From positions 1-64,000 of the IMG/VR virus record IMGVR_UViG_3300020161_000515: DNA of 64,000 nucleotides. The stretch is one strand, 5' to 3'. This document shows positions 2,176 through 31,040 of this stretch, piece after piece. Within the stretch, counting starts at the first letter, position 1; every line of letters begins with the position of its first letter. The position numbers were made by a program, and so were the translations under genes. The notes beneath the pieces are model-generated. The model saw only the letters and a program-made list of their open reading frames with translations, was not told the DNA's origin and did not search any database. Source of the stretch: a virus. Taxonomy: Duplodnaviria > Caudoviricetes.

Positions 2176-2574
2176 TTAAAGGTGATCTGCTATTTCAGCA
2201 TTGTAAATGCTATCGGGTTCTTGATCTAACACGACAACATAGAAATCATTTGAATAGGATAATGATTCAAATGTAAAAGATCCATCTTGATTACTTAAAG
2301 TTTCCCTTATTAAGTTTCCAGTGCGTCTATCGTATAAGCGCACTAGCTTGGAAATCGGAACAAAGTCCATCCTTGTTATACCTGCAATATCCTTTGTAAT
2401 GTCTCCTAGAGATTCAAGGGATAAGCCGGATTGATTAAATTTCAAGAATGATTTTAATGGTGGAGCTCTGTTAGTGATAAAACTTGTCTGAGAAGATTTA
2501 AAGTGCAAGGGTGGATTAGTGACCTTCATTGAGGACAATCCGCCATAAAAACCTACTGCACCAAGATCACTCAT
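2176..2574 (-). CDS. Small virion protein with C-terminal 'RxTG' beta-sandwich (family Q; carboxypeptidase-regulatory/prealbumin-like fold inferred)
   Basis: VRLYDRRTGNLIRETLSNQDGSFTFESL...YNAEIADHL matches the C-termini of 31049..31402 and 27489..29912. Confidence 0.7.
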   Translation of the reverse strand: MSDLGAVGFYGGLSSMKVTNPPLHFKSSQTSFITNRAPPLKSFLKFNQSGLSLESLGDITKDIAGITRMDFVPISKLVRLYDRRTGNLIRETLSNQDGSFTFESLSYSNDFYVVVLDQEPDSIYNAEIADHL

Positions 2575-3325
2575 TTACGTCGAAGAACAAATAGTTGCCA
2601 TTAATAACAGAGCAAAAGAGTTTTTTACCCATTGAAGAAACCATGTATCCTGGATTAAAAGGATACTCTGGTAAGCCAGCAAATAGTCCAGGCATTGTCC
2701 CTAGTGTGCATTGAGATAAATGATGGTACAGATGCACACTTGAAAACTGAGGACCTTTTGAATCTAAAAAGAATAGTTTCTTTCCCACCATAGTAGGATA
2801 AAACATTCCATGAAGATTAAAAGCAATGCTGTGATCTTCTGTTTCGTCAAGCATTAATCCAAACGAAGTTGAGCAGATGATAGCCTGGTTTTTAAATCTG
2901 TCATAGTCATTCCATTTTCCAAAGAATAAAACAACCTTACCGCTTATCAGATAAAAGAAATCGTGTGATGTAAACATTTCCCATCTACCGGATATGTCAT
3001 TTTTATCTATCACGAATCCGTTATCATTTTGGTAGATTGAAGGAAAGAAATGGTATGTATGACGATCTGGAAAATCATAGTCTGTTATTAAACTATCTGT
3101 GCAACCTCGTACACAAATTTCTGTATTACTCTCGTAAACATGTATCCAAGTGTTGTCAGGCATTTCATAAATAGTCTGCCTGTCATACTGGTGTTTAATC
3201 TGCCAACCTGCTCCATTCTTTGATCCGTACCCATCAACAAGAACCTTAGTTAAGATATTCCTGAATGATGTGTCATCCATCGTTAAGATGGGAGCACTGG
3301 TATCTGAGTAGCTGTAATGTCTCAT
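2567..3325 (-). CDS. Putative tail appendage protein (family P, shortened paralog)
   Basis: YSYSDTSAPIL...LTKVLVDGYGSKNGAGW matches paralogs at 6814, 29913 and 31402. Start moved from TTG 3331 to ATG 3325, which makes an ATGA overlap with the endolysin stop. Confidence 0.7.
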   Translation of the reverse strand: MRHYSYSDTSAPILTMDDTSFRNILTKVLVDGYGSKNGAGWQIKHQYDRQTIYEMPDNTWIHVYESNTEICVRGCTDSLITDYDFPDRHTYHFFPSIYQNDNGFVIDKNDISGRWEMFTSHDFFYLISGKVVLFFGKWNDYDRFKNQAIICSTSFGLMLDETEDHSIAFNLHGMFYPTMVGKKLFFLDSKGPQFSSVHLYHHLSQCTLGTMPGLFAGLPEYPFNPGYMVSSMGKKLFCSVINGNYLFFDVNE

Positions 3326-3885
3326 TTCCAACTCGGAGGATTAATGAATCCAAGAAAGTATAAACTCTTTTTGGACTTTTCAAATGATACCACACGTTTC
3401 TTAGAGTATATACCATCACCTTCACGGTCAGTGGAACCTATTCCACTCTTAGCACCAGTATTACCTTCAACGGTGATAATGGTTTTATCTGAGGCATTGT
3501 ATTCTTTTACGATGCCAGCATGACCTTTGCCTGGATCAGATCCAAGTCGCATGAAGAATATTGATCCCGGAACAGGAACAAACTCAGTCTTACCGATCTT
3601 CTTAAATCCTTCATATGATGCCTGAGATGATGGACTCATTGTGGTGGCAAATTCTTTTAACACATCTGCAGGAGCCTTAAGATCAGTTAAAGCTTTTCTC
3701 CAAATAGCCTCGCAAAACGAAGCGCAATAAGGCCAGCCAGCTTGCCAGCCAGCGTTCTTCATCCACTCTTTTATCTCAGCACTCAGTTCTTTGTTGTTCC
3801 ACTCAGAATTGGAAACTATTTCGTGAAGGTTTATGAAATTAGATGCCACTTCTATAATTTTATTACCTACTTCACTCTGATTCAT
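3322..3885 (-). CDS. Endolysin / peptidoglycan hydrolase, CHAP domain
   Basis: PYCASF (catalytic Cys), GHAGIV (catalytic His) and ITVEGNT motifs of CHAP amidases. Near the holin. Confidence 0.85.
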   Translation of the reverse strand: MNQSEVGNKIIEVASNFINLHEIVSNSEWNNKELSAEIKEWMKNAGWQAGWPYCASFCEAIWRKALTDLKAPADVLKEFATTMSPSSQASYEGFKKIGKTEFVPVPGSIFFMRLGSDPGKGHAGIVKEYNASDKTIITVEGNTGAKSGIGSTDREGDGIYSKKRVVSFEKSKKSLYFLGFINPPSWK

Positions 3886-7731: not shown

Positions 7732-9368
7732 TCTGAATCCAGTCTGCTTATAACTTGTGAGTTAGATTTAATTGCATCGTTTTTGTCTTCCAATATCATA
7801 GCATACACAACGTCTGAATTTGTAGTGATAGCTATATGACCTGTGTCAGGAGATGAAACACCTTGATTTGAATAAGTACCTAGGACATGGTCATACGCCA
7901 CAACTTGTCTTGATACTGGTCTGGTTAAAGTATTTCTCTTAAAAGATCGTACTCTGAGATTAAGCAATTTAGGATCTGACGTTAGGTTAATATCTAACCA
8001 CTCTTTTTCAGACTTACCAAGGTTCATAAGAATGTGCTTGTGTGCAGCCTCAGATTTCTTAACAGAGAACGTTAACTTTCTAGTTAAAGAGTTGACACCG
8101 TTATTAATATTGATCCATACTTCATAGACTTTGGTAGCTCTATGTTTAGGAATAAATCCATAAAGCTTTCTGTCCTTAGGAGTTATCTTAATGAAAGAAC
8201 AATCAGTCTTCACTATCTTTAATAAGAATGGTCTGGCCTCATCATAGAATGTTTTACAAACAATATCTAAGGCGTATGAGAAAGTTTGCTCACAGTCATA
8301 CTCACCTAGATAAAGTGGTGACAAAAGTTCTAAAGTGTTTTTGATATAGTAGGCGTTAAGAGCAGAAGTTTCAACTTCATCAAAGTAAGGATACAAATAA
8401 TTCTGAGCAACGTTTTCTGTATCCATCATCATAAAACGTTCTGTGTTCATAGCACCATCGTATGAGAACACATAATCAATATTTATCTTTTTCTTTCTAG
8501 AAGTTCTTTTTAAAAAGGCTTTTACTTCTTTATGACCCCAGTTTTTATTCTTTGAAAGAATCAAAGCACAAACGCCTGCCACTAATGCAGCGGCATAGTC
8601 ACCACTAGATTTGTAACGAACCACTTTATCTAAGCACTCTACTATGATGTTTGTGCATGGCGCATTGACGGATACACATGATCCATAATTGCAGAACTCA
8701 TAATAAGATAAAGTTTCGTCAAAACCACCTACAGTGATTACGTTGGTATTTCTGACTGGTGATGCAAAATCTAAATTGAAATTACCAACTCTTTCACCGC
8801 TTTCAAAGTAATCACCTTTGGCACAGGCAACAGTTGTGATATTTCTATCAAGTAGTCTTTGAACTGATTTTGCTAAAGGATCATTAGATAGGCTTGTAAG
8901 AGTGTGATAGTTTTCGTCAGTAGGCATTTCAAGAAAATCTAAAAGCACTACTTGTTTTCTAGAAGGAATTGATACGGCAAGAACAGTGCTTATTGCACTG
9001 GAAACAGATGCTCTTAAATCTGTATAGTCCAGTGCAATACTGAAAATCTGAGCTTCTTTTGCGACACCATACTTCTTTCCACCTACAACAGAAGCAAGTT
9101 CTGTTCCTCTGCCAACTGTGTCAACTGTGCTAGAAAGATTATGAGATCTTCCAGCCAGTTCAATAGATCCTGAAATGATCCCAGTGCTTAAAATAAAGAT
9201 ATCTACCGAAGCGGCATTAGTTGAAAATGCTCCAGCCAAGTAGATAGAATTGGAATAATCACGCTTACAGATAAGGTCAAGATACCAGCCACGTCTAGCC
9301 AAAGCACCACTAAACGAAGCTTCTGCATCCTCAAGATGAATGTATCCAAAGCCATAAAAGACCGCCAT
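7728..9368 (-). CDS. Subtilisin (S8A, proteinase K/aqualysin-like) fold protein, catalytically dead, with a C-terminal virion-type domain
   Basis: Recognisable S8A scaffold (GWYLDLICKR, GGKKYGVAKEA, SPVRNTNVITVGG, FCNYGSCVSVNAP, ALVAGVCALILS). The triad motifs read ILSTGI (DTG D->S), GRGT (HGT H->R) and SSGDYAA (GTSMA S->D). Confidence 0.85.
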   Translation of the reverse strand: MAVFYGFGYIHLEDAEASFSGALARRGWYLDLICKRDYSNSIYLAGAFSTNAASVDIFILSTGIISGSIELAGRSHNLSSTVDTVGRGTELASVVGGKKYGVAKEAQIFSIALDYTDLRASVSSAISTVLAVSIPSRKQVVLLDFLEMPTDENYHTLTSLSNDPLAKSVQRLLDRNITTVACAKGDYFESGERVGNFNLDFASPVRNTNVITVGGFDETLSYYEFCNYGSCVSVNAPCTNIIVECLDKVVRYKSSGDYAAALVAGVCALILSKNKNWGHKEVKAFLKRTSRKKKINIDYVFSYDGAMNTERFMMMDTENVAQNYLYPYFDEVETSALNAYYIKNTLELLSPLYLGEYDCEQTFSYALDIVCKTFYDEARPFLLKIVKTDCSFIKITPKDRKLYGFIPKHRATKVYEVWININNGVNSLTRKLTFSVKKSEAAHKHILMNLGKSEKEWLDINLTSDPKLLNLRVRSFKRNTLTRPVSRQVVAYDHVLGTYSNQGVSSPDTGHIAITTNSDVVYAMILEDKNDAIKSNSQVISRLDSE

Positions 9369-11041
9369 TATATAAGACCGCTAACACCTATAGAGCTCCA
9401 ATCGTCCCATACGTCAACCTCAACTCCAGCAGGAACTATTCTTTTCACCCATACCGCTTTACATTTCAAAGGAGCAAGATCACCAATTACTAAAGGATTA
9501 AGTCTTGATGGTGTTGTGAACGTAACTCCAGCAGGAGCTGTATTCTCATCAGCAACAGTAACAGCTATTCCAGTAGTAAAACCATCACCCACTGAAGCTG
9601 GATCTAAACCCATCTGAAGTGTGTCAACTTTGGAAACTGGTTGAGAGTTAATGAAGATTTTTATATCCCACATAGTCTCAGTTAGGTGCGTGTTCGTCAC
9701 AAAGAAGCATCTGTATTCAGTATCTCCAAAATGAGACTCATAACGCTTAACAGAATCAAATAGCTCATTCTTCTTATTGCTGGAAGTTATGTCGGTGACC
9801 TGAAAGCGAACTCCTGTCTGAGGAAGAAGTGCTGTGACAATATCTATTGTAACCCATTTAGATTTAGTGGCATTAAACATCTTGTACTTGCCATTAACAG
9901 ATAGTTCAGTCCAATCACCCCATGTCCAACCATGAGTTTCAATATCAAGATCCTGGGTTGATTCTAGAATGAATGTAGGCGTGCTACCAACCTGAATTAC
10001 ATTAAGATTTTTTTGCCACCTATCTTCTAGTATGGCACAACGTTTATTACCTAGATCATATACTATTGAAAATGATTCTTCTGGTTCCCAGCCACCAGCA
10101 TCTATCACATTTATTCCTGTCAATCCTGTATTGAATTTGTATTCTGGTTTAGAAGTATCAGTTGCAGATGCTGCAACATTAGAAACAGAATAAGTATTCT
10201 TTTTGTAAACTTCTGATACCACTTCTGAGAATTTCTTGAATGACGAACTTCCTGGGATGCTTGTAAAGACATGGCAGCAGTTATCAAATTCAGGTAATAC
10301 AGGTAATGTTGAAAGTGAAGCCCCGTTAGAGAAAGAAAACGCTAAGTTAACCTCAACATAACCATTCAATGTTTTAGAATCAGGAAGTGCTATTCTAGAT
10401 GAGTATGAAGGTGTGTAAGTGGTTACCTGGCCTACTGTAGCACTCGTAATTGATAACACTTTTCTGGTGTATAAATCTAATGTGAAATCACCATTAGAAT
10501 TAAAAAAGTATTTAGTCCAAGTTGGGTATCCAATTCCAAAACTCCAAGGTATTGAATTAAACAACAACTCTCTTGTGCCAGCTATCTGAGTAGTTACATC
10601 TGTCATAGACTCAAAATCAGCAAACACGTCTGGAACAAGAATAGCGTAGTATTCTGTAAGTGTTTGAGATACCGTGACTCGTCTTAAGAATATAGAATAG
10701 CTAGTTGCTGGATCTAGCCCAACAACTGATAAATTCTGAAAGAAAGTTGGTAAGGTGTCAATCCATGTAAGACCAAGAAGAAACGGATCTTGGCATCTGC
10801 CATTGACAAACTCTTGTGATACACCATCTACATAATACTTGGTTTTTCTTTTTGAAGATATTGTAGAGGAAGATAATGAAAATCTCTTAGTAGGTTCTGG
10901 ATTTAAAAACGTAGCAACGGACTGACTTAAAATAGTCTTAGAAGATACTTGACCACCTAACGAAGAATTAGAATCCTCATTGTTTATTCCTCCACTTAAT
11001 TTAAGTTGAAGGTATGCGCCTAAATTTGAAGAAACTGTCAT
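9368..11041 (-). CDS. Putative tail-tip/baseplate-attached protein (family R) with ~360 aa insertion
   Basis: N-terminal LQLKLSGGINNEDSNSSLGGQVSS and C-terminal NELFDSVKRYESHFGDTEYRCFFVTNTH...GDLAPLKCKAVWVKR. Confidence 0.75.
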   Translation of the reverse strand: MTVSSNLGAYLQLKLSGGINNEDSNSSLGGQVSSKTILSQSVATFLNPEPTKRFSLSSSTISSKRKTKYYVDGVSQEFVNGRCQDPFLLGLTWIDTLPTFFQNLSVVGLDPATSYSIFLRRVTVSQTLTEYYAILVPDVFADFESMTDVTTQIAGTRELLFNSIPWSFGIGYPTWTKYFFNSNGDFTLDLYTRKVLSITSATVGQVTTYTPSYSSRIALPDSKTLNGYVEVNLAFSFSNGASLSTLPVLPEFDNCCHVFTSIPGSSSFKKFSEVVSEVYKKNTYSVSNVAASATDTSKPEYKFNTGLTGINVIDAGGWEPEESFSIVYDLGNKRCAILEDRWQKNLNVIQVGSTPTFILESTQDLDIETHGWTWGDWTELSVNGKYKMFNATKSKWVTIDIVTALLPQTGVRFQVTDITSSNKKNELFDSVKRYESHFGDTEYRCFFVTNTHLTETMWDIKIFINSQPVSKVDTLQMGLDPASVGDGFTTGIAVTVADENTAPAGVTFTTPSRLNPLVIGDLAPLKCKAVWVKRIVPAGVEVDVWDDWSSIGVSGLI

Positions 11042-11050
11042 AAGTAACCT

Positions 11051-11947
11051 TTAGAAAAATGCTTTAATGCCTATTGAACTGAAATCGTTTCTGAAGTCAG
11101 TAGCTAAATTAGCAGGAACTATTCGTTTCAACCAGAAGGCTTGTGCTTGTCCTGGAGATAAAGTTCCAATACTTAGTGGTGTTGCTTCTGAAGGAGTATT
11201 AAAAATAACATCTCCTGGAGCCATGCTTTCATTGAGAACTTGTGACGCAACACCTTCAGAAACACCGTCACCAATACCACTGGGATCTAATCCCATTTGA
11301 AGTACGTCAGCTCCTGAGGCTGGTTGATCTTTTAAATAAAGTCTCAGGTCATAAATATACTCTGATGGATGTGCATTATACACATAAAAACATCTGTATT
11401 CAGTATCACCTGTCTTAGATTCATATCTAGATATGTTATCCCACATCTCATTAGGAGATATTGTTTCTACTTTGTACGATAGCAAGAAATAAGTATTAGG
11501 AGATAGATCAGTAGGATGTAATGGATTTAACTCTATGTCTGCAATCATCCATCCAGTAGTAAGATCATTATCTTGCAACAAGTATCTTCCATTAGAATCT
11601 AGGTACTCAGCTTTTCTTTCATCTTTAGGAGCCCACCCTAAACCTGACGAAGTTGGCTGACCTAGCCAGATTCGTCTAGTATATGGTTGGTAGATTATGG
11701 AAGTAGTTACTAAAGAGTTTATAGCCAAGGGATATCCACTACATCTTACAATATTGATGTAGTTTATGTATTTTAAAAACTCTACATTAGTAGGAGTTAC
11801 ATGAAATACAACTCCATTTCTAATAGTGCATTGCTGGCTTGACACAATCCTAGAGGACATTTCACCACCCACACTACTTAATTGCAGAAGGTTGCTCTGT
11901 CCTCCAGAGTATCTAAATTCTAAATAACCTGCCGACGATACAGACAT
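11051..11947 (-). CDS. Putative tail-tip/baseplate-attached protein (family R) with ~120 aa insertion
   Basis: LEFRYSGGQSNLLQLSSVGGEMSS ... NEMWDNISRYESKTGDTEYRCFYVYNAH...GTLSPGQAQAFWLKR. Confidence 0.75.
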   Translation of the reverse strand: MSVSSAGYLEFRYSGGQSNLLQLSSVGGEMSSRIVSSQQCTIRNGVVFHVTPTNVEFLKYINYINIVRCSGYPLAINSLVTTSIIYQPYTRRIWLGQPTSSGLGWAPKDERKAEYLDSNGRYLLQDNDLTTGWMIADIELNPLHPTDLSPNTYFLLSYKVETISPNEMWDNISRYESKTGDTEYRCFYVYNAHPSEYIYDLRLYLKDQPASGADVLQMGLDPSGIGDGVSEGVASQVLNESMAPGDVIFNTPSEATPLSIGTLSPGQAQAFWLKRIVPANLATDFRNDFSSIGIKAFF

Positions 11948-14900
11948 TACACTAACGCCTTGTAAGCTATTCTGCTTACATCAATAACAGCAGGTGCTTC
12001 TGTTTCAGAAGTGCTGTACCGTTTGATCCAAAATGCTATTGACTGTCCTGGTGCAAGAACTCCTACAATCAATGGCTCATCATAAGTAGCCTTTGTGAAA
12101 GTAACTCCTGCTGGAGCTGCATACACATTAGCTACAGAAGCAGCAACACCATCTTTACCACTTGGATCTAGTCCAACTTCAAGTACGTCTTTGGCACTTG
12201 GTTGATCTGCTATGTAAATACCTACCTGAATAGCAGAATCACTTGGATGTGTGTTCTTTAAATATAAACATCTGTAATCAGGTGTGTGATTATAAGTGCT
12301 GGCCTTGGTCATGGTATCAAATATCAGATTATTTTGTGATGTGTAATCTGAATCTATTGCTATGATGTAGTTACCTTCCAGTGCAGTCATGCTGGTTAAA
12401 TTCAACATAAGATACGGAGAATACTTCTTAAATGCAAACGATGCGTTATCTATTTCATTATTTCTGTTTATGTTGAATCGTGTCTGAGCCTTTAATGCTT
12501 GGTCAGATATTAATGGTCTTAATTCTTCTGAAGCATCTGGGTGTTTCGTATTATTTAAAATTTTAGCAGTAACATCTGTTCTGTCAACATTGTATCTAGC
12601 AAACCAAACAGGATCTTGTCTAATTTTATTTTCTAGGAAAGGAGCAAAAGTGTTGTTCTTATTCCTATTAAAAATAAATGTTTTCAAGTTTCTAGATGTT
12701 GGTGGTGGAAATCTATCTAACGAAACCTCATTAGAGCTTGCTATTACCGTATCATCATTAAAGGATTTACGCACCTTCATGACTGCCGTCTTAGGCAATT
12801 TAAAATACGTTACCTTATCCATCTTAGAAAATGTAAAAGTAAATTCTACCGATTCAGAAGTTGGAAGTAATTCCACCACTAATAAATCACCACTCCATCT
12901 TGTGTCTGAAACTGGTGTGACAGTCTTTAATGTAAAATATGTATTGAAAGATATTGCTGTAAAAGCCAATATTACTGGTGTAGTAAGAGCATCACTCATC
13001 AAGTTATTCTTTAGCAAATTCTGAACAGTCATGCTAAGTGTGAAATCATCATAGAGTTTCAAATGGCCTGCCACTGGAGCAGTTAAGTTGAGAGTAAATT
13101 CTAACGGTGGTGGTGGAGGTATAACCATACCAGTAGTCTGAACAACAACTTCTCCATCAGGAACTCCAACAACGTCATCTGCTATTGTGAGTAACATAAA
13201 GGTGAATGATTTGCCAGTTATTGATCTAGCTAAAGGCTTTACTCTTATTTGAATTGTTGTGGTAGACCCACTTACATAATCAACTAAAAGATCTTCACTT
13301 AATTCTGTTTCAACACCATCTCTAACTCGAAAGAATTTTGAAGGTGAAATATACTCAAGAGCTCCTGTTGCTAATCTTAGTTGAGTCAAATTCAATGCAG
13401 TAGATGTCAGTGTGAGAGTTATTAAATCTCCATGCTCTAAGGTTGTCTTATCAGTTGTAAGAACTGTGTCATCTGCAACTTGTAATAGTGGCTCATGTAT
13501 TCTTAATAGGTTGGGAATCAAAGGAGTATTAAAATCATCTGATCCATTTATAAAAAATTCCAAATAATAGCTATCTGCATAAACATATGGAATGGGAGTA
13601 TTGGTAGAGATAAATCCAGAAACTACCGTTGCCGATCCAGTTGCAAGAGTTTTGTAAAATGCAGTAGACTTTCTAAGATTCAATTTCCAATGAATAGTCT
13701 GACCTTCAAAGTAGTTCAGGTTGGAAATTGTTATTAAGCCTGAACTGTTTTCATAGTAATTTTCAAGATAGTTGATAAAAGGAATTTTTAAAGTCAAATT
13801 GGATGACTGTCCTAAAGGTCCTACATACACACTTGAAATTGTGTCATAAGAACTGTTAGCAGGTATTCTTGAGTACGTTAAAGAAACCTCTTCCATAACA
13901 AACACCAGATTAAGTGATGTTGAATTTGGAATTAGTTTATCTAGTGTTACTGTTATAGTTTTAGATGGTTCTGCTGCGGTAAGCTTTACCACTATACATT
14001 TATATCCATCAGCATCAGCATTGATTATCAAAGGTGCTCCATTGTCACCTGGGATTGAAGATGCAACCACATTGGCTTTAGTACCATCTGATATAATTAA
14101 ATCTTCCATCGTAACCAAAGAACCCATACAATAAATTGCTACATACTTCTGGGCTTTGTTTTCAAATGTTAAGTTTTCAGCAAGATACGTTGAGCCTACT
14201 GTTAGTGTTAACGGAACTTTATACTCTAAAGTTGTGATAGAAGGTACTAATGAAATAACAAGAGGTCTTGGAAAGAACGTAGCAGGAATAGTAAATTGTT
14301 TTTCTGCTAGAATGGTTCTATCTTCTACTGCCTTTTCTAATTTAGCCTTCAACAAAATTTTAAATGTATAAGGAGCGGCAGCCCTTGATAATCCGTTAGC
14401 ATTAGAAAATGACAAGGTGCTGACAATTTCGCCATTAGAAAGAATGTTCTTTGTAGCTATTTGAGGGCTCATCTTGTTAAAAGAAGTAATGCTAAAATTA
14501 TCAAGAGATATGTTTTGCAAACTTTCTAAATGAATCTCAGACAGCAACCCTGGTGTTCCCTCTATACTGGATACCTGATCCACAACGAAACTGTCATAAT
14601 TTGCTACTACAAATTGGGTAGTAATAGCGTCACCAGGATTAGTGAAAACAGCATCAGCTATATTTCCAGATATGGACATATCCGGAGGAAAGGCTAAAGG
14701 TGATATCTCATACTGATGGAACGCCAGAAGTGCTCTGTCATTAGTGGCCCAAGATACATATGCGTATAAGCTAAGAGTTATTACATATGGAGCATCTAAC
14801 TTACTTAAATGATTAAGATTATTTAATGCCATAGACTCGCTTACTGTTCCATCAGAAGTTATTAATAATTCTGATGCAGCAGTTGCCACCTTCCTAAACA

Positions 14901-17900
14901 CGTTCATTGAGAAATTGTTAAATGAAATTCCTTTTCTGTCTCCATTTTTATCATAAAATTGTGAAGACTCCATGATAAGCTCAAATTTAAGTCCTGAGTA
15001 TTTATTAGCGCCCATAGCGGTGGTCTGAACATTTTCTTTATAAAAGGTTTCATAATTAGTTACGCCTATGGAAAAAGCAAGAGCATCTCCTTTACTTAAA
15101 AAATCTTTACCAGGTAATGACGTAACTATTTCTAATGGCCCAGGAAGTGCAGAAGCAGCTATAGAAAAACTCTTTGTTGATAGTATGGAATCAGATGCAC
15201 CATTAGATCCTCTTAGAAACATCTTTAATGTGAACTCAAACGGAGCTTTTGCTGCTTGTAGAAGTGAAACAGTTTTCAGATTTAGAGTTGAAGTTTTAGT
15301 TCCGCTGGTAGATAAAGATGCTCTCAGTTCATAGTAACCATTGCTAGTAAAATTTGGTAATGTGTCAAAGTTGGCGAAACTTACACCATCAGCAGATTCT
15401 AGTGTCATATAAAATATAGCCGGATCATTAACTATTACATCTGTTGCACTTATAGTTATTGATACAGAGTCACCTAACTTAGTAAAAGTTGCATCTCCTA
15501 TTGACGCTGTTGCTGCCATTGCAGCGGGTGTGGCAAAGGTCAAAGTTGGTGAATGTCCTAGAGAATGTCCATAAATTGCTCCCACAGCCCTAAATCTAAA
15601 AGTCTTTCCAGCCAGACTTGCTGCTGAAACATTCCAAGGCCTTTGATATCTAATGGTCTTAGTGCGTGTGCCAGGAAATGATACGAACTCTAAAGTGGTT
15701 ACTATTCGTGTTGTAGAAAACTCATTATCTACTACTACGAAATCTGTTATAGGTACAACACCTTCTGTAGTAAGATAAATTCTTTCCTCAGGTACGTCTA
15801 AGCATGTGACTGTTATTTCTAACTCAGCATCTCCGCTAGGATTTACGTTGTTTACAGAAATAGTAGCTGTGTTTGAAACATCCAGAATATAAGAAATATT
15901 ATATCTCTGGACTATCATAAACTCGCTCGCAGTTGAGGCATCCGTATAAATAGAGATACCCATTGTCCAGCCAGGTTGTCCTACCGCTGGAACAGTGGTG
16001 GAGATGTTTATTGATTCTCCAGAAACAACTGCCGTTCCGTTAGTCGAAGGTCGTATCCAAGCATTTCCTATAGGACTAACTCTGCCAACATACCAATAAA
16101 GAGTTGTTCCATCAGCTAGTCCAGTTAAACCTGATACTGTAAAAGATATAGCAGTAAGTTCTGGGTAGGAAGCGTTTAAATTAAATGTTGCTGGTAATAG
16201 TGCCATATTGGGATAATTGTATTCAGGTGGAAAAGCATCAGCAGTTATTAGATACTGTTGAGTAGATAAAAGTGTTCTTGTTTCTGAAGTTCTTGTAAGC
16301 TTAGCCCACAAAGATAAACTTAACGCATAAGGTGCGCCTGATCTTATCAATCCTGTCAGATTGTCTAACATCAAGTTTGCACTGTATGTCCCATCAGATA
16401 ATATTCTTGTAAAGTAACTTCTATTCGTTATCCTAGTTAAGGATGATACATCAAAATTATCAAGATTGGCTACTTGATTTGGATTTGCTGTAAGCTCAAT
16501 CAATAATCCATCTACACCCGCTGAACTAGATACTTGTTCCCTTACAAAAGTTTCATAATTTGTAACAGTAAAAGACGCTCTTACAGCATCATGTACCTGG
16601 TCAAATACTATGTCTGAAAATGAACCTGTTACTGACAAAGCATCTACTGGAGGATCTACTGGAGGTGGAGCAGGGAAGGCGTCAGCAGTAAGAGTATATT
16701 GATGTGATGCTATTACATCTCTAGCTTCCGATGTTCTGCTTGGTTTAGTAAGTAAAGATATCGTGAAGTCATATGGAGCATTTTCTCTGGAAAGACCAGA
16801 TAAGTTATTTAGCGTTATAGCACTGGTATGTGCTCCATCAGATATTCTAAAAAGCTGACACAATTTTCCAGTAATTCTAGTAAATGATTCTATTGAGAAA
16901 TTGTAAAAAGAAATAGCACTATTTGATTCTAATACTAATTCTGTCAATAAACCTGGAATTCCTGGAACACTTGATATTTGAGAATCTTCAAATGCAGTAT
17001 AATTACTAACAGATGCTGATGCTGAAATGCTATCTCCTATTGCATCAAAAAAATTAATGTCTGAGATGCTACCAGTGACAACAGCAAAATTATTTTGATT
17101 AAAAGCCGTAGGAGAAATGTAGAATGTGTCAGACTTTAAAACTAATCTTGTTTCAGAATTCTTTTTTAACTTTGTTTTTAAAGAAAGAGTAAAAAAATTA
17201 TTAGAATCTATTCCAGTTAAATCTGAAAGTGCTATAAGAAAAGTTACAAGTCCATCAGATGTAGCGAAGTGCCTGGCAAGATTCTTATTGACCTTAGTCA
17301 TGTTGGTCAATGATAGGTTATCAAATGACGCGGAAGTAGGATCCATTGGAACTTTTGAATACGGTTTTAACTCCAACTCAAATAAAAGTCCTGGTGTTCC
17401 CTCAATACTTGACCCTTCACTTTCTATAAAAGATGCGATATTGCTTATATTAACCTTAGCATAGATAGAAAACCCTATCTTTGTAAACTCAGTCCTAGCC
17501 GACATCTCGCTAAGAATTTGAACGGATGAGTCTGCATGATAACTTACTGGAGGAGTGTATCCTAAAATAAGACCAGTAGAACTTACTATCTTAAACTGTA
17601 ACGGAGTGTCATATAACTGTTGTGAAGATTTGTATTCGTTACTTACCCATTTAAGTTTTACATTAATTGTTCCAGGAAACTCTTCATAAACAACTATTTG
17701 GTTATCCCAAATTCTAGTTGTTGATGAATCTGTTACTAAAGAAAAACAACTAAAGCTCCAGTACGAAGATTCTAAAACAAAGTATATTGATCCTGATGGA
17801 CTATCTAGACACGTTATTGCGTACTCTAGAATGTCACTCTTTCCTGGGGTTAAATCACTAACTTCAACAGTACAAGAATTGTTAACATCAATTATATTAC

Positions 17901-18228
17901 AGAGTGCTATGTCATAAACAATTCTGCTAGTGCCTATATTATGTGAATCCGTTACTATAGATAATCCCATCTTTTCATTTCTATACACCATTGGGATGTT
18001 GGTGGAAATGCTGATAGATTCATCTTGGACTATAGCTGATGTGTAATCTCCTGAATTGAAATTACCTGTTGCTATTGTTCCACCACTACCTGACGGATAC
18101 ACTATCCCAACAGCCCAGTAAACCGTAGTTCCGTTAGCTATTCCAATTAGACCTGAGACAGTAAATGTAACGGGAGTACCTTCGTCGTAAGAAGGCTCTA
18201 AGTTCGTAGTGATGTTAAGTAATGACAC
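11947..18228 (-). CDS. Giant repeat (Ig-like inferred) tail appendage protein, 2,093 aa, ending in the C-terminal half of family R
   Basis: About six ~140 aa repeats (GLL.EL.LES....F.NF...R..APY.F) and 2-3 copies of a second repeat, with poly-Pro hinges. C-terminal NNLIFDT...DYRCLYLKNTH...GVLAPGQSIAFWIKR. Starts at a GTG directly after the upstream TAG. Confidence 0.8.
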   Translation of the reverse strand: MSLLNITTNLEPSYDEGTPVTFTVSGLIGIANGTTVYWAVGIVYPSGSGGTIATGNFNSGDYTSAIVQDESISISTNIPMVYRNEKMGLSIVTDSHNIGTSRIVYDIALCNIIDVNNSCTVEVSDLTPGKSDILEYAITCLDSPSGSIYFVLESSYWSFSCFSLVTDSSTTRIWDNQIVVYEEFPGTINVKLKWVSNEYKSSQQLYDTPLQFKIVSSTGLILGYTPPVSYHADSSVQILSEMSARTEFTKIGFSIYAKVNISNIASFIESEGSSIEGTPGLLFELELKPYSKVPMDPTSASFDNLSLTNMTKVNKNLARHFATSDGLVTFLIALSDLTGIDSNNFFTLSLKTKLKKNSETRLVLKSDTFYISPTAFNQNNFAVVTGSISDINFFDAIGDSISASASVSNYTAFEDSQISSVPGIPGLLTELVLESNSAISFYNFSIESFTRITGKLCQLFRISDGAHTSAITLNNLSGLSRENAPYDFTISLLTKPSRTSEARDVIASHQYTLTADAFPAPPPVDPPVDALSVTGSFSDIVFDQVHDAVRASFTVTNYETFVREQVSSSAGVDGLLIELTANPNQVANLDNFDVSSLTRITNRSYFTRILSDGTYSANLMLDNLTGLIRSGAPYALSLSLWAKLTRTSETRTLLSTQQYLITADAFPPEYNYPNMALLPATFNLNASYPELTAISFTVSGLTGLADGTTLYWYVGRVSPIGNAWIRPSTNGTAVVSGESINISTTVPAVGQPGWTMGISIYTDASTASEFMIVQRYNISYILDVSNTATISVNNVNPSGDAELEITVTCLDVPEERIYLTTEGVVPITDFVVVDNEFSTTRIVTTLEFVSFPGTRTKTIRYQRPWNVSAASLAGKTFRFRAVGAIYGHSLGHSPTLTFATPAAMAATASIGDATFTKLGDSVSITISATDVIVNDPAIFYMTLESADGVSFANFDTLPNFTSNGYYELRASLSTSGTKTSTLNLKTVSLLQAAKAPFEFTLKMFLRGSNGASDSILSTKSFSIAASALPGPLEIVTSLPGKDFLSKGDALAFSIGVTNYETFYKENVQTTAMGANKYSGLKFELIMESSQFYDKNGDRKGISFNNFSMNVFRKVATAASELLITSDGTVSESMALNNLNHLSKLDAPYVITLSLYAYVSWATNDRALLAFHQYEISPLAFPPDMSISGNIADAVFTNPGDAITTQFVVANYDSFVVDQVSSIEGTPGLLSEIHLESLQNISLDNFSITSFNKMSPQIATKNILSNGEIVSTLSFSNANGLSRAAAPYTFKILLKAKLEKAVEDRTILAEKQFTIPATFFPRPLVISLVPSITTLEYKVPLTLTVGSTYLAENLTFENKAQKYVAIYCMGSLVTMEDLIISDGTKANVVASSIPGDNGAPLIINADADGYKCIVVKLTAAEPSKTITVTLDKLIPNSTSLNLVFVMEEVSLTYSRIPANSSYDTISSVYVGPLGQSSNLTLKIPFINYLENYYENSSGLITISNLNYFEGQTIHWKLNLRKSTAFYKTLATGSATVVSGFISTNTPIPYVYADSYYLEFFINGSDDFNTPLIPNLLRIHEPLLQVADDTVLTTDKTTLEHGDLITLTLTSTALNLTQLRLATGALEYISPSKFFRVRDGVETELSEDLLVDYVSGSTTTIQIRVKPLARSITGKSFTFMLLTIADDVVGVPDGEVVVQTTGMVIPPPPPLEFTLNLTAPVAGHLKLYDDFTLSMTVQNLLKNNLMSDALTTPVILAFTAISFNTYFTLKTVTPVSDTRWSGDLLVVELLPTSESVEFTFTFSKMDKVTYFKLPKTAVMKVRKSFNDDTVIASSNEVSLDRFPPPTSRNLKTFIFNRNKNNTFAPFLENKIRQDPVWFARYNVDRTDVTAKILNNTKHPDASEELRPLISDQALKAQTRFNINRNNEIDNASFAFKKYSPYLMLNLTSMTALEGNYIIAIDSDYTSQNNLIFDTMTKASTYNHTPDYRCLYLKNTHPSDSAIQVGIYIADQPSAKDVLEVGLDPSGKDGVAASVANVYAAPAGVTFTKATYDEPLIVGVLAPGQSIAFWIKRYSTSETEAPAVIDVSRIAYKALV

Positions 18229-19719
18229 CTATGGGCTCACTAATAAAGGAAAAGAAAATGTTAACTCATCTATTACGGTAACAGGAGCAGATCTGCAAAA
18301 TCTCTTTGCAAATTTTTCTTTCTCGTATGTGTTAGTGATAAGCTCTGACTCTAAGAATGTGTTTTCTGGAACTTCAACGTATTCGTAGTACCCATCATCT
18401 TTTAAATGATAGTCCATAGGAACTTTTATTTCTACAACATCTCCAGTTAAGAATCCATGAGGTATCGCATTACCACCAGTTATCTCAGCAGTAAAATCAT
18501 ATTGGTCATCTAACAGAGTTTCAAGGGAATGGTATGAAACAGATGCATCTGATAAGACTCTGCAAATAGCTAAGAAACCTTCAACTCTAAATTCTATTAC
18601 AAACGGAGTAAAATTTTCCCTAACTCTTTCATGTCTTGTTATTTTGAATCTAGTAGGTGAGTCATATTCAACATCGTATGCTCCATTAAAATCGTTAAGA
18701 TATGTACCCTTTGGTCTAGCAATAGGATATAAGCAGATTATGGAATCATCAGATAAGAAATGAGGTTCTTCTTCATTTATGTAATATGAAATAATTTCCG
18801 CTTTCTTATCAAATAAAGAATAGCGTATCAATCCAGATAGTCTGGGTTGAACACTAGGCACTGTAAAAGGATACTCATAGACGAAAGTATAGTCGTCAAG
18901 TACCTTTACGCTTGCAGTACAGTAGAATGGATGAACCGCTGTTCCTTCAAATTTACTAACATCAATAACATCTCCATTGGAGTATTGATGAGGTACTACA
19001 GCACCGTTCCTAGATATCTGACCTTCAGCATATCCAATCTTAGCCTTTATCTGTACTATCTCTTCATCTATTCTTAATTGTGTAGAGTTAAGATAGTTAA
19101 CTTCAAAAAGATCTGCATCTTGTGAAATATACATTGGCTGAACAGCCTGGCGTCCTACTGTAAGATCACTAGCAGTTATTCCTGAACTGTGCTTTAAGTT
19201 TAGAACTTCTAAGTCTTTGAAATTATTTAAGACTGGATCATAGTTGTAATACATGCCATTCTTAAAAACTCTTGTGCTTACTAATCTTAAAATGTACTTT
19301 CCAACGCCTTCTAAAATTACTGGTGATGGATGAACAGTCCAAGGTATAGCTGGACTAAACATTTCAATAGACGATGCTGAGATATTTGACAACTCTGTTA
19401 TCCTGGTGCTGAATAAACCCATCACACCATCTTTTATCTTTAGACCTACATAGTTTTTATTAACAGTGTCTCCAAGAACAGGAGTCTTGTTTGAATCGGT
19501 TAAGTCAAATCCATTGACATCTATTATCTTTACTGAGCCTCCAACAGTGAAAGCAGAGTTATTTGTAACGCTTGTGCTATTACCCAAGGCATAATATTTA
19601 GCATTAAATTTTGAAACTTTGGTAGAGCTAATTCCACCACCAAGACTAGCCTGAGGATTGGTATTAGCGTCACCACCTGAGTATCTGAATTCTAGGTATG
19701 CTGCATTTATTTCAGTCAT
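18229..19719 (-). CDS. Virion protein carrying only the N-terminal half of family R plus two small beta-barrel repeats
   Basis: YLEFRYSGGDANTNPQASLGGGISST at the N-terminus. Two H-x-x-x-x-GD-V repeats (PHQYSNGDVIDV, PHGFLTGDVVEI). Ends in TAG in frame with the next ORF. Confidence 0.75.
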   Translation of the reverse strand: MTEINAAYLEFRYSGGDANTNPQASLGGGISSTKVSKFNAKYYALGNSTSVTNNSAFTVGGSVKIIDVNGFDLTDSNKTPVLGDTVNKNYVGLKIKDGVMGLFSTRITELSNISASSIEMFSPAIPWTVHPSPVILEGVGKYILRLVSTRVFKNGMYYNYDPVLNNFKDLEVLNLKHSSGITASDLTVGRQAVQPMYISQDADLFEVNYLNSTQLRIDEEIVQIKAKIGYAEGQISRNGAVVPHQYSNGDVIDVSKFEGTAVHPFYCTASVKVLDDYTFVYEYPFTVPSVQPRLSGLIRYSLFDKKAEIISYYINEEEPHFLSDDSIICLYPIARPKGTYLNDFNGAYDVEYDSPTRFKITRHERVRENFTPFVIEFRVEGFLAICRVLSDASVSYHSLETLLDDQYDFTAEITGGNAIPHGFLTGDVVEIKVPMDYHLKDDGYYEYVEVPENTFLESELITNTYEKEKFAKRFCRSAPVTVIDELTFSFPLLVSP

Positions 19720-20281: not shown

Positions 20282-20317
20282 TGATCTGTTTCCTATAAAG
20301 TTTTATATCTGTAATTT

Positions 20318-27488: not shown

Positions 27489-29912
27489 TTAAGTTGGTGT
27501 TAGTTTATCATAAACCATCGCATTGTAATCATCATCTGGAACAGCTACCGCAAAATAGTCTGCTTTGTTAGTATTTAAACCTACATAATCAAAAGAAAAG
27601 TTACCATTTGAGTCAGATATAGTGCCAGCTATCTTTCTTCCGGTTCTTCTATGAAACAAAAATACTTTAACTCCAGGTATAGGCACTACTCCGGCCTTTA
27701 CTGTTCCTGATAATATTCCTTCTTTGTATCCTGCAGGTACTCTTGTTTCAGTCCAAAATTCACCACCCTCCCACCAAGGTAAAGGTATTGTTTTTTCAAA
27801 AATATCTGCTCTATAAAGATTTGTAGGATTAGGAAGATAAAGAGATTGATTAACCATAGGAACAGGGTCAGTTCCAAAAACCTCTTTTACGGTGGCTGGT
27901 GGAATCCAACTTCCTACATTCTGTTTGTAGTATCTGTTAGGTATAAAGTTGGATGTATATCTAGCAACTCCTTTAGTAACTCTTAACTCATCACAATAGA
28001 TAGCGGCAGGATGGTCAAGTGTGCTAGAATTTCCAAAATAAAGATGAAGTGCCTTTATAGAGTATGTAAATGCAACACTGGAATCAAGTGTTCCATTTAT
28101 GTAGAAATACAATACATTATTGTATCTTACTACGGCAAGATGATACCAAGTAAGACCATCTGATAAAGTTGCGTTACTTGTAAGAATAACAGTTCCATCA
28201 TAAAGATAAAATTTAAAATGAGCAGGTGATGATTCGTTTGGAGCAAAGCCACAATAAAATCCACCAGCCTCACCCACCTGACCAAAATAGAAAAAACATC
28301 CTAGGTTTCCGTAATAATATTTTCCTCCAGTTGACTTAGGCCATACAAATGATTCTATGGTGAAATCTACAGTTCCAAAATTCCAATCATTGCTTTGCGC
28401 TGGTTGAAAAACAGAGTTCCAAGAAGATGTATGAAAAGACCCATAAGGACCTATTACTGCTGCGGTATAAGTGTTTCCACTACCCAGACTAAGTATTTTT
28501 CTTCTAGTAGAACTTAGATCCAAACATGTTATTCCGTCATTTTCTGGACAATACAATACTATATTATTGAAATACGGATCAGATTTATCAATAGGACCTT
28601 CAGAAGGAATTGAATCTGTTGGAATATCAAATTCACCCCAATATCTAGCAACACCCTTAGTTATTCTAAATTCATCAATGTTACCTACGAAGCATTCTCC
28701 ATAATTTGAATCTGCTCCAATATAAACAGTTGTTTGGTTAAAATTAGCATCTACAGCAGGATTGACATAAATAGATCCTCCAGAAGGAGCTCCATTTATA
28801 TATATAAAGATATAGCCATCTTTTCTAGTGACTGCTACATGTGTCCATGAATTAGTTGGACATGTAGCACTGGTAGCAACCATCCCTTTCCATCCATTAT
28901 AATAATAATCCACCTCAACTATCATTGGATTAGAAGCACCGCTTCTAGCGATAGCTAGGCATCCGTTGGTGCTATGAGTTCCAAATCTAGCTATAGTGGC
29001 CCAGTCATAGTTAAGTGCAGTAGGACGTATCCAACATTCAACAGTAAAATCTCCCGAACCTAATGCGAGGTCAGCATGAGTAACTGAAAGTCTGCCTGTT
29101 CCTGATGGAAGATTTAAGCACGAAGATCCTATTTTACTCTGAGATGTTATTATAGTTGAATTATAGACTGTTACCGTTTTAGGAGTAGATGAGCTATCTG
29201 TTACAGTGGTAGATCCATCAGTATCTTCAAAGTGAAGCAAAAGAACTGTATCAGCATCTGCAGAGTATTCAGTAGTTTGTGGAACAAATCGTGGGAGTCC
29301 TGACCAGTATCTGCATACCATAGAATATCTAAGGCAATCCATATAACCGTTATAGTCATAACTGGATCCTCCTATCTGTGATCCGATCTGAATATATGCA
29401 GGTACATTCATTAAGGAGCAGTTAGTTGAAGAAGAAATGTCCATCAGTCCATCAATGTAAATTCTGTAATCATTATCCTTTCTACAGAAGGCTATATGAT
29501 GCCAGACATTGTCATTTATTATTTTTACTCCATAAATATTATACCAATATCCACTATACCACACAAGTCTTCCAGCACTGTTTATGTAACAATGCCATGA
29601 GGATGTTCCTTGAGTAATATCAAACAAAGACGCATTAATGTCTGTTGTTTTAATAAACATTTCTAATGTAAAATCATTCCTATACGTAGGCCAGACCGAC
29701 TCATCTAAGTTAGTGACAACTCTTATGTAATCACCTGACCCATCAAAATAAGCACAAGAGTTTCCGAACTTCTTTTCTGCTGTTACTATTTTGACATTTC
29801 CCATAGCCTCAATAGTTTTAGGAGAGGGAGATTCGTCTGTAAAGACAGTAGACTGATCTGCACCTTCAAAATTAAGAAGTAACTTTACAGAACTCCAATA
29901 TGTGTCAGACAT
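27489..29912 (-). CDS. Tail fibre/receptor-binding protein with three LamG (concanavalin A-like) domains and a C-terminal family Q domain
   Basis: Three repeats of LLL.FEG...FTD.S...FDGSGDY...DFT.E.(W/F)I...WHH(I/V)A..R...Y.(Y/I)NG...G.(M/I)DE.R(I/V)TKGVARY. C-terminal VFLFHRRTGRKIAGTISDSNGNFSF...YNAMVYDKL. Confidence 0.88.
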   Translation of the reverse strand: MSDTYWSSVKLLLNFEGADQSTVFTDESPSPKTIEAMGNVKIVTAEKKFGNSCAYFDGSGDYIRVVTNLDESVWPTYRNDFTLEMFIKTTDINASLFDITQGTSSWHCYINSAGRLVWYSGYWYNIYGVKIINDNVWHHIAFCRKDNDYRIYIDGLMDISSSTNCSLMNVPAYIQIGSQIGGSSYDYNGYMDCLRYSMVCRYWSGLPRFVPQTTEYSADADTVLLLHFEDTDGSTTVTDSSSTPKTVTVYNSTIITSQSKIGSSCLNLPSGTGRLSVTHADLALGSGDFTVECWIRPTALNYDWATIARFGTHSTNGCLAIARSGASNPMIVEVDYYYNGWKGMVATSATCPTNSWTHVAVTRKDGYIFIYINGAPSGGSIYVNPAVDANFNQTTVYIGADSNYGECFVGNIDEFRITKGVARYWGEFDIPTDSIPSEGPIDKSDPYFNNIVLYCPENDGITCLDLSSTRRKILSLGSGNTYTAAVIGPYGSFHTSSWNSVFQPAQSNDWNFGTVDFTIESFVWPKSTGGKYYYGNLGCFFYFGQVGEAGGFYCGFAPNESSPAHFKFYLYDGTVILTSNATLSDGLTWYHLAVVRYNNVLYFYINGTLDSSVAFTYSIKALHLYFGNSSTLDHPAAIYCDELRVTKGVARYTSNFIPNRYYKQNVGSWIPPATVKEVFGTDPVPMVNQSLYLPNPTNLYRADIFEKTIPLPWWEGGEFWTETRVPAGYKEGILSGTVKAGVVPIPGVKVFLFHRRTGRKIAGTISDSNGNFSFDYVGLNTNKADYFAVAVPDDDYNAMVYDKLTPT

Positions 29913-31040
29913 CTATGTGTACCAGGAGTTTGAAATTTCTAAAAATATCTGACCGTCAGAATAAATATTCCAAGCCATAAAAGTTCTATGTGAATCTACT
30001 CCCGTTCCTTGAAAGATGTCACCATGAGCTAGAGGCTTGTAATGAAACGGATTCCACAATCCAGGAATCTTTCCTCTTATTCCCAAAGGATCTCCTATAT
30101 ATACTGGAGAGTAATGAAGCTTTCCATCCATTGGATGGGGAAAAGAATACCCTCCTGTTCCCAATCCAGTAACTAATCCTGGATTAGGTGAAAGCTTTGA
30201 AATGTTTCTAGAAGATCCTATTCCTCCATATCTTCTAGCTACATAGTGATAGGAGTTAGTTCCACTATAGTTGGTTAATGCTGCGAAGCTTTGTGGAGAG
30301 TTGTTGTATTGATTACCTATTGAAATTGTAGCGTAAGGGTCTGTTGGATCAACTGGTAGAATATCTCCAAAGAAGTTTGGAGACCAATATGAGTTTGATG
30401 CGACAGATGTGCTGTAATCTGCAAGCCATATTAAAAATTCTTCTGATGCCAAAAGCATCCAAAATCTAGGGGTAGAAGAATCAGATTTCCACCAAAACAT
30501 TCCACCGGACATCTGAGTATCTGTTGGAAAGAGTGAAACAAGTGTGTTTATATCTGCGGCAGATTCACATCCTCTGAATTTAGTAGTACCAGCAACGGAA
30601 TCATCCATGTGCATACAGAATAAATTACTTCCGGCACCTTGTTTATACACAACTTTATTAGATGCTGAAAACAGCTTAGTCCAGTTAGCTGGTGCTACTT
30701 TAGCAGATATTGTTCCGGTAGCGGGTGTTGCAGGAGTACCTGTAACCTGAATAGTAACAGCATTAGCAGTTGTTGGAGTGGCTTCAAACTGACCATTATA
30801 TTCCACCTCATTCGCACCAGCTATTAAGATCTGAGGATGAACACAAGGGTTACCTAAAACGAATCCGTGTGCTACTGGAAAATTTATAGTAGCTGTTGAA
30901 CCTGATCTTGTGATGGTTACTGTTTGTGCTCCATATCCATTAACCAAACAAGCATCAAGTAGATTTATCATTGAGCCTACTGTACTGATGCTAGTAGGTG
31001 CTCCATAATCTGTACTTCTAAAAACGCAAACTGTTGGCAT
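29913..31040 (-). CDS. Putative tail appendage protein (family P) with a small beta-barrel insertion
   Basis: FRSTDYGAP...LLDACLVNGYG, insertion with AHGFVLG...YNGQF, then APANWTK...IRGKIPGLW...HGDIF. Confidence 0.8.
   Translation of the reverse strand: MPTVCVFRSTDYGAPTSISTVGSMINLLDACLVNGYGAQTVTITRSGSTATINFPVAHGFVLGNPCVHPQILIAGANEVEYNGQFEATPTTANAVTIQVTGTPATPATGTISAKVAPANWTKLFSASNKVVYKQGAGSNLFCMHMDDSVAGTTKFRGCESAADINTLVSLFPTDTQMSGGMFWWKSDSSTPRFWMLLASEEFLIWLADYSTSVASNSYWSPNFFGDILPVDPTDPYATISIGNQYNNSPQSFAALTNYSGTNSYHYVARRYGGIGSSRNISKLSPNPGLVTGLGTGGYSFPHPMDGKLHYSPVYIGDPLGIRGKIPGLWNPFHYKPLAHGDIFQGTGVDSHRTFMAWNIYSDGQIFLEISNSWYT

Follow-up and report, generated by a model that had tools for sequence, protein, structure and literature searches.

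A small phage anchor domain divided between two abutting genes at a conserved boundary

The stretch of DNA analyzed here (the window; 64,000 nucleotides [nt], positions 1 to 64,000 of IMG/VR record IMGVR_UViG_3300020161_000515, a virus of the Caudoviricetes) contains two adjacent genes, here called gene 1 and gene 2, which carry complementary halves of one small domain. The domain belongs to a family, designated R, that is also represented by two single-chain paralogs just downstream, o11051 and o9368. Gene 1 ends in a TAG that is followed without a gap, and in frame, by the GTG start of gene 2, and this boundary is both real and conserved. The interpretation that we favor, with moderate confidence, is that the two genes are a conserved split pair, from the tail-appendage module of a long-tailed phage, encoding two translationally coupled polypeptides, which rebuild one beta-sandwich in trans.

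Complementary halves of one domain

The features of the pair and of its paralogs, all of which lie on the minus strand, are as follows.

18229..19719 (-): gene 1, 496 amino acids (aa); R-family N motif, an N-domain (aa 1-215) common to the single-chain relative P0003, and two more small modules; C-terminal end ...TFSFPLLVSP-TAG
19609..19719 (-): R-family N motif, gene 1 aa 1-37, MTEINAAYLEFRYSGG..N.NP..SLGG.IS; family profile positions 1-37
18229..18231 (-): gene 1 stop codon, TAG; located between modules, in a linker that follows an xFxFP module-end motif
18226..18228 (-): gene 2 start codon, GTG, adjoining the stop; probable termination-reinitiation site
11947..18228 (-): gene 2, 2,093 aa; a run of repeated modules (about 1,900 aa) and then the R-family C half
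11956..12348 (-): R-family C half, gene 2 aa 1961-2091; family profile positions 35-165
17665..18228 (-): N-terminal module of gene 2, about 190 aa, copy 1
15667..16206 (-): internal duplicate of that module, gene 2 aa 675-854, with Met675 (codon ATG) where copy 1 has the GTG
11051..11947 (-): o11051, 298 aa; single-chain R paralog in which an insert of about 125 aa separates the N motif from the C half
9368..11041 (-): o9368, 557 aa; single-chain R paralog with an insert of about 370 aa

Gene 1 starts with ATG. Across the junction the minus strand reads ...CCT TTA TTA GTG AGC CCA TAG GTG TCA TTA CTT..., and the two open reading frames (ORFs) are in frame with a 0-nt gap, such that reading through the stop would give 496 + 1 + 2,093 = 2,590 codons. 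An earlier note on this DNA, made from the sequence alone, had described in-frame ORFs joined as CCA TAG GTG, with only the N-terminal half of the R domain in gene 1, only the C-terminal half in gene 2, and both halves in each of the paralogs. The sequence bears out the junction, and BLASTP and profile coverage bear out the division of the domain. By BLASTP among the proteins of the window, gene 1 aa 1-36 match the N terminus of o11051 with 53% identity, and also that of o9368, and gene 2 aa 1967-2092 match the C termini of both paralogs with 36 to 38% identity (E values of 1e-21 to 1e-24). A family profile built from 70 sequences (A4) was searched against every ORF of the phage contig. It is covered from position 4 to 166 by o9368 and from 2 to 165 by o11051, whereas gene 2 covers only positions 35 to 165 (E value, 7e-37) and gene 1 only positions 1 to 37 (E value, 2e-11). 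The pieces carried by gene 1 and gene 2 are thus exactly complementary. The gene 1 motif also matches a hidden Markov model (HMM) of the N motif with an E value of 5e-27. The combination of N motif and C half by which the family is recognized is found in gene 1 and gene 2 jointly and in neither alone.

The R family matches phrog_13135, and in gene 2 this match spans aa 1968-2087. Among its members are KVP40.0353, which is flanked by gp15 and gp16, and the product of an N4-like Alteromonas phage gene; the annotation of each is hypothetical only. Neither gene 1, gene 2, nor the family as a whole has a match in Pfam, and a sequence search of the PDB with the family profile gave no match. In the smallest members, of about 165 aa, an xLSGGxxNxxPxxSLGG motif runs directly into the C half (EYRCxYxxN...GLDP...FWxKR), and in forms of 260 aa an insert of about 90 aa lies between the two. 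IMG/VR, scanned using the family alignment, yielded 80 loci, and HMMs for the N motif and the C half were run on all of their ORFs. The C half was found in 87 ORFs of these 80 other phage loci, 69 of which also have the N motif according to the HMM. Among the remaining 18, inspection by eye revealed a diverged N motif in 16, one duplicates a member of that group (L048, identical to L047), and one is truncated by the end of its contig. Both halves are therefore present in 86 of the 87 ORFs, the other being the one that ends at a contig end, and in none of the 80 loci do the N motif and the C half occur in separate ORFs.

The gene pair shares its N motif and C half with the annotated members of the family (phrog_13135, KVP40.0353, and the hypothetical proteins of schizo-T4-like Vibrio phages and the N4-like Alteromonas phage), as well as a setting among tail or neck genes; in the other loci, the neighbors of R-family genes encode tail and baseplate proteins. 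In contrast to the other members checked, which are single chains of about 165 to 560 aa, the window lineage has the largest passenger (the sequence inserted between the N motif and the C half) and is the only one that is split.

Other members of the family also vary in the site and content of their inserts. A fourth, distant member in the window (39142-40146, minus strand; 334 aa; E value of 4.6e-14 against A4) is broken elsewhere in the profile, with positions 2-90 falling at aa 6-92 and positions 85-166 at aa 248-337. Because this member is interrupted at a different place, the family tolerates insertion at multiple sites. Other uncultivated phages (L006:5605-10464, L019:3481-6765, L003, and L008) have two to four R-family paralogs in tandem, each array with differing inserts, which is the plug-in arrangement also seen in the window. 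Within o11051, 246 nt (82 codons, in frame) are skipped at 11134-11381 in a contig from run X4; there are only 24 letters on the shorter side and loose ends nearby, and the skip is probably derived from another organism or a repeat artifact.

Reality and age of the gene boundary

A single in-frame stop that interrupts what the paralogs have as one chain could represent a recent nonsense mutation, a pseudogene, or an assembly or sequencing error, as the earlier note had allowed. This interruption is the sole point in favor of such an explanation, which is very improbable and, in our view, effectively refuted. The exact 496-aa product is on record in JGI, ENA, and Logan assemblies. Logan contigs from the lake-water metagenomes of another study also carry the phage, with an identical junction sequence. 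A contig from run X3 covers 18012-18389 with 0 differences and the TAG unchanged, and runs X2 and X4 have depth in the bin containing the junction, with no difference listed there. No RNA data carrying the phage are listed among the sequencing runs. Since the TAG is unchanged in independent samples and the boundary is conserved in distant relatives (see below), a recent mutation or an assembly error is ruled out; the stop is real and old.

Both frames are also under selection. In a strain that is about 3 to 4% diverged (X6), whose coverage lies outside the junction, the listed differences comprise 13 synonymous and 5 nonsynonymous changes in gene 2, downstream of the stop, and 4 synonymous and 2 nonsynonymous changes in gene 1. 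As these differences are mostly synonymous, gene 1 and gene 2 are both under purifying selection. Contigs of the same strain lack one base at 17003 and at 20315 (one contig each; depth, 2.6 to 3.4). The deletion at 17003 would put gene 2 out of frame, and given the depth, it may be a contig error.

Among 1.84 billion representative proteins, searched with no length limit, the only proteins like gene 1 are gene 1 itself, P0002, and P0003. P0002 (511 aa) is the sole full-length relative, with 47% identity to gene 1 over its full length, and the two proteins terminate at the same position in the alignment (...TFSFPLLIQN in P0002, ...TFSFPLLVSP in gene 1). The N motifs of the two are identical at 33 of 40 positions. 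P0003 is a single chain of 399 aa in which the N-domain of gene 1 (aa 1-215; 55% identity) is fused directly to the C-terminal 185 or so residues of gene 2, with the entire passenger missing. This single chain shows that the products of the two genes belong to a single unit.

Relatives of gene 2 were sought among longer proteins with its last 200 residues, which include the C half. Over this region gene 2 is 66 to 74% identical to its close relatives P0006 (1,150 aa), P0007 (1,150 aa), and P0008 (488 aa), and P0007 can be aligned to gene 2 over 880 residues with 35% identity. The longest contig for P0007 is the same as that for P0002 (48,523 bp). All three of these proteins lack the N motif and start with a Met that is located 1 to 5 residues from the aligned GTG of gene 2. 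In their N termini (MTINFTELQVVEG, MSFSFSEPQVYEG, and MAATWNITDPLTEG) the Met lies 11 to 12 residues ahead of a conserved EG...T(I/F)T motif, and the N terminus of gene 2 (VSLLNITTNLEPSYDEG) begins 15 residues ahead of it. These alignments suggest that the gene boundary exists in up to four lineages, at 35 to 47% protein identity, which, together with the unchanged TAG in independent samples, disposes of the mutation or error raised in the earlier note.

The earlier note had also proposed that related genomes be compared for a fused ORF. No fused long form occurs in the collection of 1.84 billion representative proteins, in which P0003 joins the two ends without the passenger. When residues 300-900 of the read-through form, which cross the junction, served as the query in a word-based search of proteins of 1,424 to 4,533 aa, gene 2 itself was the only hit. 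Scans of viral, metagenome, and genome contig collections yielded no relatives of gene 1 or P0008, and gene 1 had no match among cultured phages by megablast or tblastn.

Anatomy of the junction and use of TAG

The stop falls between modules. The C-terminal xFxFP motif of gene 1 resembles the ends of the internal modules of gene 2 (...DAFP, ...LAFP, and ...TFFP), which places the stop in an inter-module linker and not within a domain. The N-terminal module of gene 2 and its internal duplicate are 38% identical (E value, 9e-32), and the homology starts two residues upstream of the gene 2 start codon, where P-stop-V is aligned to P-N-M. The internal copy thus has a Met at the position equivalent to the start of gene 2, which is consistent with a split pair in which gene 2 begins at its GTG. 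A weaker third copy of the module (24% identity; E value, 2e-4) is found near aa 1496-1664.

The junction between the genes resembles the ordinary coupled junctions of the operon. Junctions that overlap or have a gap of at most 2 nt account for 18 of 40 in the operon. A 4-nt Shine-Dalgarno (SD) core is found at 16 of the 41 genes overall and at 3 of the 18 genes that are downstream at tight junctions. Upstream of the GTG of gene 2 there is only GTGAG and no strong SD. The remark in the earlier note that this start lacks an AGGAG-type SD is therefore accurate, but the feature is not distinctive. A second abutting in-frame junction, TAG|ATG at 29913/29912 (window positions 29910-29915, minus strand), lies between two unrelated genes, a "tail assembly" paralog matching phrog_9998/9600 (29913-31040) and a triple-LamG protein (27489-29912). 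These two are the only 0-nt junctions in the operon, and both have TAG as the stop. Termination-reinitiation requires overlaps or very short distances between genes, and heteromeric-complex subunits are overrepresented among the products of coupled pairs that are closely spaced (PMC10666635; PMC6728339). The GTG of gene 2 is probably a site of termination-reinitiation.

Non-ATG starts are also annotated for the 4,039-aa tape measure (GTG, 53432-53434, minus strand) and for 2567-3331 (TTG, 3329-3331, minus strand). An ATG lies two codons downstream of each, and these starts may be miscalled, in which case the GTG of gene 2 would be the sole non-ATG start in the operon.

Programmed or suppressor-mediated readthrough of the amber codon, which was the first option of the earlier note, would have some ribosomes make a covalent 2,590-aa chain, its passenger forming a closed loop, beside the 496-aa product, perhaps alongside reinitiation. 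The continuous frame with no gap is compatible with this, as are the retention of the stop position in P0002 and the fact that the other family ORFs examined, bar the contig-end truncation, have an undivided domain. Gene 1 has Pro immediately ahead of its stop, and Pro in this position can weaken termination in Escherichia coli. However, this residue is not conserved, being P in gene 1 and N in P0002. Furthermore, the start codon comes directly after the stop, the gene 2 products of relatives begin there, and the same kind of abutting in-frame junction joins the unrelated genes at 29913/29912. Folding of 18100-18260 gave no RNA structure at the junction better than that of shuffled sequence (z, -0.41), and none was found downstream of the stop.

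Decoding of TAG as an amino acid receives no more encouragement from the other genes of the contig. TAG ends 5 of the 41 genes, and no other gene is interrupted by an in-frame stop. One of those that it ends, o29913, terminates within one residue of the end of its paralog o6814, the stop of which overlaps the next gene out of frame. Because TAG ends other genes at homologous C termini, there is no code change; TAG is an ordinary terminator in this phage. ARAGORN detected no tRNA, and hence none with the CUA anticodon that the earlier note had suggested looking for, either within the window or across the whole 78,408-bp contig. This contig is limited to the structural half of the genome, with genes for the terminase, portal, capsid, major tail, tape measure, and tail tip, which means that the lack of a tRNA there is not decisive and that a phage tRNA(CUA) could lie elsewhere. 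Taken together, these results give no positive support to readthrough into a protein of about 2,590 aa, and we consider it unlikely.

A variant that seems to us less likely again is that the amber codon is deliberately leaky, with most ribosomes stopping and restarting to yield two chains that would be held together by the divided beta-sandwich and a minority reading through to yield a covalently closed loop of 2,590 aa. If so, one locus would produce two architectures of one appendage with no change of genetic code, and the system would be a counterpart, in a double-stranded DNA phage, of the Q-beta A1 readthrough protein.

Proposed assembly in trans and comparison with known systems

The favored explanation of two coupled chains that share one domain can be put as a sequence of steps. 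The ancestor would have been a small beta-sandwich anchor domain of the R family, into which passengers were inserted after the first 35 or so residues. In the window lineage, the passenger would have grown to about 2,400 residues, and a stop with an immediate start codon would have been placed in one of its inter-module linkers. Ribosomes would terminate at the TAG and restart at the abutting GTG, and this translational coupling would lead to roughly equimolar amounts of the 496-aa and 2,093-aa chains. The N motif of the short chain would then supply the missing first strand or strands of the beta-sandwich at the C terminus of the long chain. The outcome would be one anchor node bearing two arms with free distal ends, whereas in the single-chain paralogs the passenger would form a closed loop.

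Support for placing the N motif and the C half in one sandwich comes from the predicted structure of a single-chain paralog. The AlphaFold2 model of o11051, made from the 70-sequence alignment, has a mean predicted local distance difference test (pLDDT) score of 85.5 and a predicted template modeling (pTM) score of 0.84, and its N motif is modeled with a pLDDT of about 97 although it is some 125 residues apart from the C half. When the model was compared exhaustively with known structures, it could be aligned with single beta-sandwich domains from residues 1-8 through residue 298. The matches include the GH123 N-domain (Z, 8.1) and the PorA N-domain, PapD-like/MSP domains, and chaperone-usher pilins (Z, 5 to 7), with Z values that indicate a common fold only. 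Pilins such as FimA, PapA, and related proteins, compared using VIA-align, score no better than other beta-sandwiches (Z, 5.3 to 6.6). Foldseek found nothing significant in the PDB, and BFVD gave uncharacterized proteins only. The model of P0003, built from an 8-sequence alignment, is poor (pLDDT, 44.8); only its C half is usable, aligning from about residue 260 onward, and the N motif is not placed. We take the o11051 model as indirect support for the N motif being a strand in the sandwich that contains the C half.

Each of the two genes has its own set of several modules, and they might instead encode two independent proteins that do not reassemble a domain, with the N motif serving, for example, as a tail docking peptide and the C half forming a terminal domain by itself. 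This is doubtful, as the N motif runs directly into the C half in the minimal members of the family and both are present in nearly all of the family ORFs, as P0003 links the two in one chain, and as the N motif in the o11051 model is confidently predicted within the same sandwich. The N motif and the C-terminal 200 aa are also the best-conserved parts of the pair in its relatives, with identity elsewhere of about 35 to 47%. A split intein or trans-splicing was considered and rejected; neither protein has a Pfam family, and no HN-Cys/Ser/Thr junction is found in the first 60 residues of gene 2.

Trans complementation, the second option of the earlier note, is the one best supported by the position of the start after the stop, the starts of gene 2 in relatives, the ordinary coupled junction, and the AlphaFold model of one sandwich, from which we infer the reassembly itself. 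Several points weigh against it. The split is unusual for a family whose other ORFs examined (87 ORFs in 80 loci) are single-chain, bar one truncated at a contig end, and the covalent link might matter. The gene boundary in the relatives is known from their proteins and not from the DNA at the junction. The model that suggests assembly in trans is that of the single-chain o11051 and not of the gene 1/gene 2 pair. Finally, GTG is a rare start codon in this genome, in which 38 of 41 genes start with ATG.

Aspects of the arrangement have parallels in several known systems. The Q-beta A1 protein is a product of UGA readthrough. Phage readthrough and recoding systems are similar to the pair in having an in-frame stop inside what is otherwise one long structural protein. 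In recoded phages, however, in-frame TAGs are many and suppressor tRNAs have been reported, whereas here there is one such TAG, other genes end ordinarily in TAG, no tRNA was found in the contig, and a start follows the stop. In crAss-like phages, TAG is reassigned to Gln (code 15; PMC9523058, PMC11210395). Coupled gene pairs coding for heteromeric-complex subunits (Huber et al. 2019, PMC6728339; 2023, PMC10666635) are similar to gene 1 and gene 2 in that they lie on the same strand, have adjacent stop and start codons, need no strong SD, and are expected to give a fixed stoichiometry. Their commonest spacings are overlaps of -4 and -1 nt, in contrast to the in-frame 0-nt gap and GTG start found here, and they encode two ordinary subunits, whereas the products here are pieces of one ancestral domain.

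The proposed completion of an incomplete beta-sandwich by the N-terminal strand of another polypeptide would be akin to donor-strand complementation in chaperone-usher pili (FimA and PapA). The pair differs from these pili in that there is no sequence relationship and no chaperone or usher, the structural Z values are in the range of common arrangements, and the R family normally supplies the strand in cis. A literature search found no paper on strand complementation in phage tail fibers. Multi-gene or branched phage fibers include those of T4 (gp34-37), G7C (gp63.1/gp66), and CBA120, whose tailspike protein (TSP) adaptors, like those of G7C, have gp10-like domains. As in the arrangement proposed here, a long appendage is built from separately encoded chains that dock via small conserved domains. 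Those fibers dock by whole domains, whereas in the pair one domain is itself divided between chains, and a gp10-like domain was not detected. Multi-chain phage fibers and coupled gene pairs are both already familiar; the new elements are a conserved split through one small domain and the recognition of the uncharacterized R family as an insertion-tolerant anchor.

If the two chains do assemble in trans, the pair would be a natural case of one small beta-sandwich divided between two polypeptides, forming the joint of a very large phage appendage. For annotation, the pair is a caution that an in-frame stop between complementary halves need not signal readthrough, recoding, or a pseudogene. More broadly, the widespread and uncharacterized family that includes phrog_13135 and KVP40.0353 can be viewed as an insertion-tolerant anchor domain whose passenger may be absent or as long as about 2,400 residues, the recognition of which helps to annotate tail modules and may possibly provide a display scaffold.

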